A DNA stretch of 64,000 bases from a virus (lineage: Duplodnaviria; Heunggongvirae; Uroviricota; Caudoviricetes): positions 12,575 to 76,574 of IMG/VR virus record IMGVR_UViG_3300032144_000002. One strand, written 5' to 3'. Every line of letters begins with the position of its first letter. Position 1 is the first letter of the stretch. The notes below the pieces were generated by a model. That model was not told the DNA's origin, did no database searches, and saw only the letters and a program-made list of their open reading frames with translations. Positions 43,146 through 59,293 of the stretch are shown here, piece by piece. The position numbers were made by a program, and so were the translations under genes.

Positions 43146-43191
43146 CTTGTCCTCCAGAGAAAGGCCCGGCTGTTACACCGGGCCGCCTTGC

Positions 43192-43413
43192 CTACTTCCC
43201 GTCTGTTCCGAGAGGCGTCAGCTCAGTGGTGAGCCGCGCCCTCATGAAGCAGTCCTTTGCTTCAAGGAGCTTCTGCATGCCGAGCGCCCTTTGCGGGTTG
43301 TCGGGCAGCAACTTCTCCATCTTGTGTGCCAGTTCGGATATCGGTGCGGTGATGTCCACCATCTTTTCTGGCACATGGTCGTAGCCGATGAAGAGACGTG
43401 TGCGCTCAATCAT
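43192..43413 (-). CDS. Hypothetical protein
   Basis: 73 aa. Confidence 0.25.
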   Translation of the reverse strand: MIERTRLFIGYDHVPEKMVDITAPISELAHKMEKLLPDNPQRALGMQKLLEAKDCFMRARLTTELTPLGTDGK

Positions 43414-57470: not shown

Positions 57471-57643
57471 AGATTCTGGTACTTGCTCGTTGAAATGATG
57501 GCGCGCACTACAGCGCGGATCTTTGGATTGGGAGCTTCGGCATTCAGCTTTGCGAGCTTGCCGACGTCGCTCTGGTATTGCTGATACTCGGCTTCAGCTC
57601 GCTTCAGCTGCTCCGGTGATATCTTGATTATTGGATCTTTCAC
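57467..57643 (-). CDS. Small hypothetical protein (about 58 aa, GTG start, GGGAGA RBS), below ORF-track cutoff
   Basis: VKDPIIKISPEQLKRAEAEYQQYQ...; ATGA overlap with downstream gene start. Confidence 0.25.
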   Translation of the reverse strand: MKDPIIKISPEQLKRAEAEYQQYQSDVGKLAKLNAEAPNPKIRAVVRAIISTSKYQNL

Positions 57644-58242
57644 AGCCCCGGTCTCCCTGTCTTGCAGAGCCAGTGCGTCGGCTCCCTGTTGCCTTCAAGT
57701 TGAATCTGAGTGAACGAGTTCTCGTAATACCACCAGCCGACGTCTGCCGGGTTGCGGTCATCCATCTGCATGGCTTCTTCAAGCGTGCGATACCACGCGC
57801 TCCATGTAACCCACACGGTAGCCATGTTTCTACCGACGATCACCTCATCGCCATCCTTCGGCGCAGTCTCAATCGGCTTCCATCGCATCTCAGGCGTCTG
57901 GTAGAGCCCTTCTGGCTGAAACGAGAATTCCATGATCTCGGCCTGCTTGATCTTGTCACCGTCATAGATCGACGGCATGAAACCAGGATTGCCAAGTATG
58001 GCGCACAGATCATCTCTGCTGACGCCTTCTTGAAAGGTCACCACGATTCTTCCGTTGGCGTTGCTCGTGACGAATCCGAGCGGCGGCTTCGTGTGATCAT
58101 GCTGCATGAGGATTGGCACGTTCGGGTGATCGCCGATTCTACGGAATCCCTGCATCGGCGCCGTCCTTCCACACTCGCCGCAGACAGTGACTTGGATGTT
58201 TCGCCGTCCGCACTTGCAGGTCCAGTTAGAAAGCAGGCTCAT
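57640..58242 (-). CDS. DUF551-domain protein with N-terminal zinc ribbon
   Basis: WTCKCGRRNIQVTVCGECG; WKPIETAPKDGDEVIVGRNMATVWVTWSAWY matches DUF551 tryptophan-rich motif. Confidence 0.45.
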   Translation of the reverse strand: MSLLSNWTCKCGRRNIQVTVCGECGRTAPMQGFRRIGDHPNVPILMQHDHTKPPLGFVTSNANGRIVVTFQEGVSRDDLCAILGNPGFMPSIYDGDKIKQAEIMEFSFQPEGLYQTPEMRWKPIETAPKDGDEVIVGRNMATVWVTWSAWYRTLEEAMQMDDRNPADVGWWYYENSFTQIQLEGNREPTHWLCKTGRPGL

Positions 58243-58862
58243 CGTGACCTCAGCGCGGCGCGCACTTCCATCCACAGACCACCGAGCACGTTCCTTCCGT
58301 TGCGCTTCTCGCCCCAACCCCAGAAGTCGTCACGCCACGAGTTCTCGATCAACACTCGCTCACCGGTCTCCATCAGCTTGCGAGTGACGTACTCATGTTG
58401 ATCGGCCTTGGCCATGATCATCTGCCCCATGATCCCGACCTTCACTCGGTCCCATTCCTTGCGCCGCTGTTCCTTGTAGTGCTGCGCCAGTTGGAACGCG
58501 TCGTGCGCTGAGCGGGCGACAGTGATCAGGTCGCGTATCGTCTGCGACGTCCCTCGGAACTTCTCGGCATGGTAAGCATGCTCGACAGTCGGATAGAGTT
58601 GGCCGTGCCACTCCAATGCGAACGCGCTGAAGTTGGACAGGACATAGAACTCCTGCTCATAGAAGAACACGGCGTTGTCAGTATCGAGTCCGTGGCATTC
58701 AGGGCTCTGTGCCGCCTTGCCGATACCGATGCCGTGCATGTCGAAGATGCCGGTGTCCTTGTCAACGGCATGCTCGTAACCGGCCTCATGCAACTTCGCG
58801 CCGACTTCATAGTAGGCTTGTGGTGACAGTTCCATCACCGCATAGGTATGTGTCGTTCTCAT
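58239..58862 (-). CDS. NADAR (YbiA/DUF1768) domain protein
   Basis: AVFFYEQEFYVLSNFSAFALEWHGQLYPTVEHAYHAEKF...WGWG are the NADAR family signatures. Confidence 0.7.
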   Translation of the reverse strand: MRTTHTYAVMELSPQAYYEVGAKLHEAGYEHAVDKDTGIFDMHGIGIGKAAQSPECHGLDTDNAVFFYEQEFYVLSNFSAFALEWHGQLYPTVEHAYHAEKFRGTSQTIRDLITVARSAHDAFQLAQHYKEQRRKEWDRVKVGIMGQMIMAKADQHEYVTRKLMETGERVLIENSWRDDFWGWGEKRNGRNVLGGLWMEVRAALRSR

Positions 58863-59293
58863 GACTTCGGCGCCTCCTTGAACGTCCGTGCTTCATCGCT
58901 CATGTTGGTTACGTCGATCAATCCCTCGTTAACGTACTGCGGGCTATATGCTGAGTCACACGCGACGCAGCGATACCATCCCGGGAAATCACTTCGGTTC
59001 AGCGGCTTGAACACGTTGGAGTTGCAGCGGCATCTCACCTTTGCAACAGTGACGTCATCCTTGACCACCGGCTTGAAGCCATCGGGCTCAAGGCGAACGT
59101 CCAAGTTCTGCTCACCGACGACTTCAATGTCGACCTCGCAGTGACAGTAGATCTTGGCACGCCATGACCCGCAGACGCTGGCCGTCAGTTCAAGCCCGAA
59201 CACTCCGGGCATTTCGGATCCATCGGGCATGAGGACCTTGGTGCCCTGTGCGGAGCCTTCCGGCCCTGAGATCACTCTGATACGATTGGTCAT
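58859..59293 (-). CDS. Hypothetical Cys-rich protein (start MTNRIRVISG)
   Basis: Track ORF 58859-59344. Confidence 0.3.
   Translation of the reverse strand: MTNRIRVISGPEGSAQGTKVLMPDGSEMPGVFGLELTASVCGSWRAKIYCHCEVDIEVVGEQNLDVRLEPDGFKPVVKDDVTVAKVRCRCNSNVFKPLNRSDFPGWYRCVACDSAYSPQYVNEGLIDVTNMSDEARTFKEAPKS

Follow-up and report, generated by a model that had tools for sequence, protein, structure and literature searches.

The NADAR gene and its locus

The window, by which we mean the whole 64,000-nucleotide stretch of tailed-phage DNA that was analysed, carries on its minus strand a complete gene at 58,239..58,862. According to the open reading frame list and its translation, the product is a 207-residue fusion in which an N-terminal module and a short tail precede a NADAR domain. 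The TGA stop codon lies at 58,239-58,241 (minus strand), and a Shine-Dalgarno element read directly from the sequence, AAGGAGG at 58,873..58,879 (minus strand), stands 10 nt 5' of the ATG (58,860-58,862). This element, together with ATGA overlaps at the stop of the preceding gene and at the start of the following one, gives the start codon good support. The upstream gene (58,859..59,293, minus strand), whose TGA overlaps the ATG of the fusion gene, encodes a Cys-rich protein of 144 aa, while the downstream gene (57,640..58,242, minus strand) encodes a 200-aa protein with an N-terminal CxC...CxxC motif; both are translationally coupled to the fusion gene, and neither had a Pfam, NCBIfam or PADLOC match. 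The fusion gene itself is a genuine, translationally coupled gene. Within it there is no credible internal start that would yield a NADAR-only protein, and no candidate start has a Shine-Dalgarno element.

The neighbours do not travel with the gene. No homolog of the upstream gene stands beside NADAR in the 83 other loci compared, none of the downstream gene was found beside NADAR in other loci, and a search of the related loci gave no recurrent operon partner. An adjacent darT1 (ART) toxin gene was not found at the window locus either. The gene belongs to the replication arm on the minus strand, with primase and SPFH genes on either side of it. Among 50,697 phage records the region had no match in a nucleotide comparison, and the phage is therefore novel at the DNA level.

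The same phage encodes a NamPT 18 kb from the NADAR gene and, at a distance of ~31 kb, a hypermodification cluster with a 5-hmdU DNA kinase, a ThyA-like enzyme and glycosyltransferases. The latter genes bear on the idea that NADAR serves the modified DNA or the nucleotide pool of the phage itself, as an N-glycosidase for thymidine hypermodification or in the sanitising of non-canonical nucleotides. It would fit with this that several of the best phage NADAR matches come from phages with non-canonical DNA (PhiW-14, PBS1/AR9) or adjoin QueD, and that T4 AdfN works best in T-even infection. Against this, the modification cluster is remote from the gene, most of 80 related loci have no such genes nearby, and a NADAR in a DNA-modification pathway is without precedent. 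We find this explanation barely credible.

A YbiA-like NADAR domain with one altered residue

The preliminary description had recognised NADAR/YbiA signatures in the protein, and these are borne out: FFYEQEFYVLSNFS is found at aa 66-79 and EHAYHAEKF at aa 94-102, inside a complete NADAR domain (aa 54-207; 58,242..58,703, minus strand) that was delimited by Pfam, NCBIfam, PDB and fold searches and by analysis of the junction. The Pfam NADAR model (PF08719) is matched from aa 66 to 205 over its full length (1-163 of 163) with E=6.8e-28 and 98.4 bits against a gathering score of 35.1, and phrog_1017 is matched at 4.7e-32. On TIGR02464, which NCBIfam names 'riboflavin biosynthesis intermediates N-glycosidase', the protein scores 96.2 bits against a trusted cut-off of 73.7; in calibration, YbiA reaches 169.5 bits, the Bas33 NADAR falls below the cut-off at 66.8, and T4 AdfN is undetected. 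The resources built around defence systems gave little, as PADLOC returned a weak match to the candidate system PDC-M42C and nothing else, and the NCBIfam anti-phage NADAR model DS32_2 scored far too low (68 against a cut-off of 240).

Structure prediction, which had been proposed as a check, points the same way. AlphaFold2 models the NADAR core at pLDDT 94-98 with a YbiA-like alpha+beta fold, for which the best Foldseek match is E. coli YbiA (2b3w; 3.7e-10, TMt 0.77, 30% identity), followed by the NADAR 8bau (1.9e-6); no DarG1 structure was among the Foldseek matches. A sequence search of the PDB gives the same order (2b3w at 3.5e-17, 8bau at 1.5e-4), so that no solved structure is closer than YbiA, whether by sequence or by fold. 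As judged from the searches and the model, the gene encodes an intact NADAR domain.

For the residue comparisons, NADAR references were taken from E. coli K-12 ybiA, T4 30.3 and Bas33, with the Bas60, DarG1 and SCO5665 sequences left out. By alignment, the protein retains seven of the eight residues published as contacting ADP-ribose, among them all three that were validated by mutagenesis (E94, K101 and E173), which answers the concern that the catalytic residues might be absent. The codons of these residues were located by alignment and checked. E94 (58,581..58,583, minus strand), by homology the catalytic Glu, corresponds to E43 of the P. nicotianae NADAR, E88 of the E. coli C7 NADAR and E48 of YbiA (PMC11543638). 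K101 (58,560..58,562, minus strand), by homology the phosphate-coordinating Lys, corresponds to K50, K95 and K55 of the same three proteins (PMC11543638), and the two residues have the E-x6-K spacing of the catalytic Glu and the phosphate-binding Lys. The third residue opens the motif E173-x4-D178-x2-W181, LIENSWRDDFWG, at 58,320..58,346 (minus strand). The exception to this conservation concerns the 'GR' arginine (R79 in P. nicotianae), which contacts ADPr in the 8bau structure and for which R79 of YbiA has also been given. It is Arg in YbiA, the Bas33 NADAR and T4 AdfN, and aligns with Gln in our protein (Q127; 58,482..58,484, minus strand) and with Glu in 8 of 8 aligned members of its clade; the distance from Q127 to the conserved Trp, 10 residues, is the same in YbiA and in the P. 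nicotianae NADAR. On the strength of the alignment, this swap of Arg for Gln, or for Glu in the clade, could shift the substrate preference.

The residue at the E173 position (E125 in the published numbering) defines the subfamily, with Glu in the YbiA/NADAR types, Asp in DarG1 and His in T4 AdfN (PMC11543638). Glu here places the protein with the YbiA/NADAR types and rules out a DarG1-type identity; it rules out the T4 AdfN type as well, and an alignment with T4 gp30.3 needs large gaps. Among the marks of the YbiA type, the protein has the Glu and the TIGR02464 score, and lacks the 'GR' arginine and the riboflavin/SOS context. By sequence it sits in a large, uncharacterised, mostly viral clade of YbiA-like NADARs.

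YbiA-like NADARs have been viewed as housekeeping enzymes (Johannesman et al.), and the protein might accordingly be a metabolite-repair N-glycosidase of the YbiA type, destroying reactive GTP-derived intermediates of the riboflavin pathway, or similar damaged ribosylamino-pyrimidines, during infection. The TIGR02464 score and the closeness of the YbiA structure speak for such a role, but the score is far under that of YbiA itself, and the core identity of 30% to YbiA is equal to that with the anti-DarTG1 protein of Bas33. YbiA-type enzymes, moreover, de-ADP-ribosylate nucleic acids too. No rib genes, RibA/RibD fusions or other riboflavin or SOS context were found in the window or in the 83 related loci. 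The clade, which is overwhelmingly viral, and mobile, was confirmed in at least 96 IMG/VR contigs, and its hosts, going by domain and phage matches of the environmental phages that carry it, are probably alphaproteobacteria. Its NADAR genes are orphans in the related loci, with no toxin alongside and no conserved partner, and are surrounded by replication and recombination genes. A viral, orphan clade in such surroundings, with some members near DUF4326, argues against a riboflavin housekeeping role, which we hold to be very unlikely.

DUF4326 belongs to the ADPr network described by Iyer et al. 2022, who reported that NADAR is associated with DUF4326 and SLOG, and who made the case that phage domains of the NADAR, Macro, SLOG and Nudix families are mostly directed at soluble ADPr derivatives. 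[quoted passage not shown] The published link is reproduced in the clade, where DUF4326 lies near NADAR in 13 of 84 loci, often as the immediate neighbour (it adjoins NADAR at ~10% of loci), and a SLOG/YpsA gene was found at one locus (L012). The phage NamPT suggests that the phage faces NAD-directed immunity, and the lost phosphate-contacting Arg hints at another ligand. The window, however, has no DUF4326, neither Macro, SLOG nor Nudix is among the best 25 of its 43 Pfam families, and its NamPT gene is 18 kb off. Biochemical tests of NADARs have, furthermore, all found hydrolysis of base-ADPr and none cleavage of such signals. We regard action on soluble derivatives as unlikely, and favour a substrate on nucleic acid.

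The N-terminal module and its fusion to NADAR

The preliminary description had noted an extra N-terminal segment of about 50 residues. The segment is real (aa 1-53) but is not an extension like that of DarG1; it is an unrelated small phage domain that also occurs independently. It is a separate domain, unrelated to the NADAR fold, with the module proper at aa 1-48 (58,719..58,862, minus strand) and a beta-alpha-beta-beta fold. The module has a net charge of -4, and its conserved His/Asp signature comprises T4-H5-T6, S13, E19, A27-G28-Y29, H31 and D41-M42-H43-G44. The family numbers 3,059 cluster representatives, mostly small stand-alone phage proteins of 55-260 aa, and has no Pfam entry. One of the stand-alone members is encoded at 43,168-43,320 in Agrobacterium phage JP1. 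The best match of an exhaustive module search, a protein of 3,726 aa (P0241), was a false positive due to a low-complexity repeat.

In the predicted structure the module weakly resembles half a domain of the glyoxalase/bleomycin-resistance/FosA (VOC) superfamily, whose own module fold is beta-alpha-beta-beta-beta. The Glyoxalase family was absent from relaxed Pfam matches of 64 module members, and a PDB profile search with the module returned no VOC chain at E<=10; at the sequence level, neither search gave support to membership of VOC. A more elaborate account would nonetheless make the module a minimal, single-module VOC relative that dimerises into a His/Asp metal or ligand pocket, an early-gene product that is very common, mainly in phages of alphaproteobacteria, and a possible anti-defence binder. 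The Arg-swapped NADAR would then have a non-classical substrate (another base-ADPr, or an N-glycosidic immune signal derived from NAD), with the module supplying substrate or partner targeting. We consider this combination rather improbable. The most probable contribution of the module is self-association, or else a role in binding or targeting, and not catalysis, a view that we hold with low certainty.

The two domains are joined by the tail or linker KAAQS (aa 49-53; 58,704..58,718, minus strand), which has pLDDT 53-58 in the full-length model and was placed by comparison of junctions; AlphaFold2 gives low confidence from about aa 45 to 60. KAAQS is the counterpart of the variable C-terminal tail in stand-alone module proteins. 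The NADAR part then opens with PECHGLDT, like the native N-terminus of unfused relatives (M-P-E-C-H-K-L-D or M-E-L-H-G-L-D). As the join falls exactly at the native NADAR start, the architecture points to a read-through fusion. An assembly or frameshift artefact was ruled out by two independent assemblies, the identical protein (P0001) being present in both JGI and Logan, and by five divergent homologs.

The fused architecture is rare, with six proteins in all (ours and the five homologs). The module was found within 6 kb of NADAR in none of 80 viral loci, and the two lie 5 kb apart only in loci L012 and L013. Of the 120 nearest NADARs, 71 lack an extension, and extensions other than the module are unrelated singletons. 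This rarity, together with a junction made up of exactly a module tail and a native NADAR start, is what would be expected if the module were a functionally irrelevant passenger, the accidental read-through of two neighbouring small genes having been tolerated thanks to a flexible linker. On the other side, the six fusions have diverged to 36-67% identity in the module and 58-71% in the core and persist with every module-invariant residue, and a neighbour-joining tree of the NADAR core does not unite them in a single clade, which suggests recurrence or selected retention, although this tree is weakly resolved. That the module is a mere passenger is a real possibility, yet one we lean against.

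Proposed function and comparison with known systems

Our preferred reading, to which we give a probability of roughly 55%, is that the protein is an active NADAR N-glycohydrolase which removes toxin-attached nucleobase ADPr from phage DNA, and which carries a separate N-module fused to it by read-through. The phage would express the enzyme from the arm that holds its replication and accessory genes. Host ADP-ribosyltransferase toxins would ADP-ribosylate the bases of phage DNA, and possibly RNA, and NADAR would strip the ADP-ribose off again, acting in counter-defence as an orphan antitoxin. The prime candidate substrate is guanine-N2-ADPr installed by DarT1-type toxins; a second possible substrate is cytosine-ADPr from pierisin- or ScARP-like toxins. 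By homology, E94 and E173 would position and activate the distal ribose while K101 holds the diphosphate. The N-terminal 48 residues would be a small phage domain, joined by read-through of two formerly adjacent genes, that has kept its own invariant His, Asp and Glu.

The literature sets bounds to this reading. All NADARs tested so far, from all four families and with YbiA types among them, hydrolyse G-ADPr on DNA and RNA, and C-ADPr is also hydrolysed by the NADAR and YbiA families (PMC11125620, among other sources). Counter-defence against DarTG systems in general had been suggested for this gene in the preliminary description. Phage NADARs do counter DarTG1 in vivo, as published in 2024 for three unrelated proteins, T4 AdfN and the Bas32 and Bas60 NADARs (PMC11257639), but the wording proved too broad, as it applies to the guanine-specific DarT1 only, and the thymidine-ADPr made by DarT2 is not reversed by NADARs (PMC11125620). 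For our protein, efficacy against DarT1 is plausible but would be an extrapolation, because it is YbiA-like, with E. coli YbiA being active in vitro without rescuing DarT1 toxicity in vivo (PMC11125620), and because its clade has lost the 'GR' arginine.

The counter-DarTG1 reading is thus already published biology, and what is new is the uncharacterised small phage protein at the front end of a NADAR. Current understanding is not overturned by these findings. Phage counter-defence by orphan NADAR 'antitoxins' was recognised recently, the three such proteins tested all come from coliphages, and the present gene stands for a very large, mostly viral clade of environmental phages with an altered ADPr-binding residue. 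It would therefore be well suited to probing the reach of anti-DarT1 activity across the superfamily, C-ADPr and RNA substrates included. The fusion also offers a first, weak functional handle on the module family.

Among known systems, NADAR-Bas32 (identical to the Bas33 protein) resembles ours in being an orphan, single gene in a nucleotide-metabolism and replication region, in this case of a Tequintavirus. It shares the Glu-type active site E...K...E-x4/5-D-x2-W (31.5% identity by tblastn, E=1e-6; core identity ~30%), and differs in keeping the 'GR' arginine, in having no N-terminal module and in its TIGR02464 score below the cut-off. YbiA shares the catalytic Glu/Lys/Glu and, at the R93 position, a Lys; unlike our gene it is chromosomal, in the LexA-controlled operon ybiA-dinG-ybiB (PMC11125620), and the enzyme has the 'GR' arginine, no N-terminal domain and a much higher TIGR02464 score. 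T4 gp30.3/AdfN shares the concept of an orphan phage NADAR that takes DarT1-installed ADPr off phage DNA, but carries a long insertion and a His where our protein has E173, is missed by TIGR02464, has its closest kin among the NADARs of DarG1 and is tied specifically to the T-even context. DarG1 of E. coli C7 and G. lovleyi belongs to the same superfamily and has the Glu/Lys pair and, ahead of its YbiA core, additional N-terminal sequence, whereas it has Asp (D171) in place of Glu and adjoins darT1. The extension of DarG1 is basic, has been proposed to bind ssDNA and packs beside the active site (PMC11543638); the module described here, by contrast, is acidic, of an unrelated fold and attached through a flexible linker.

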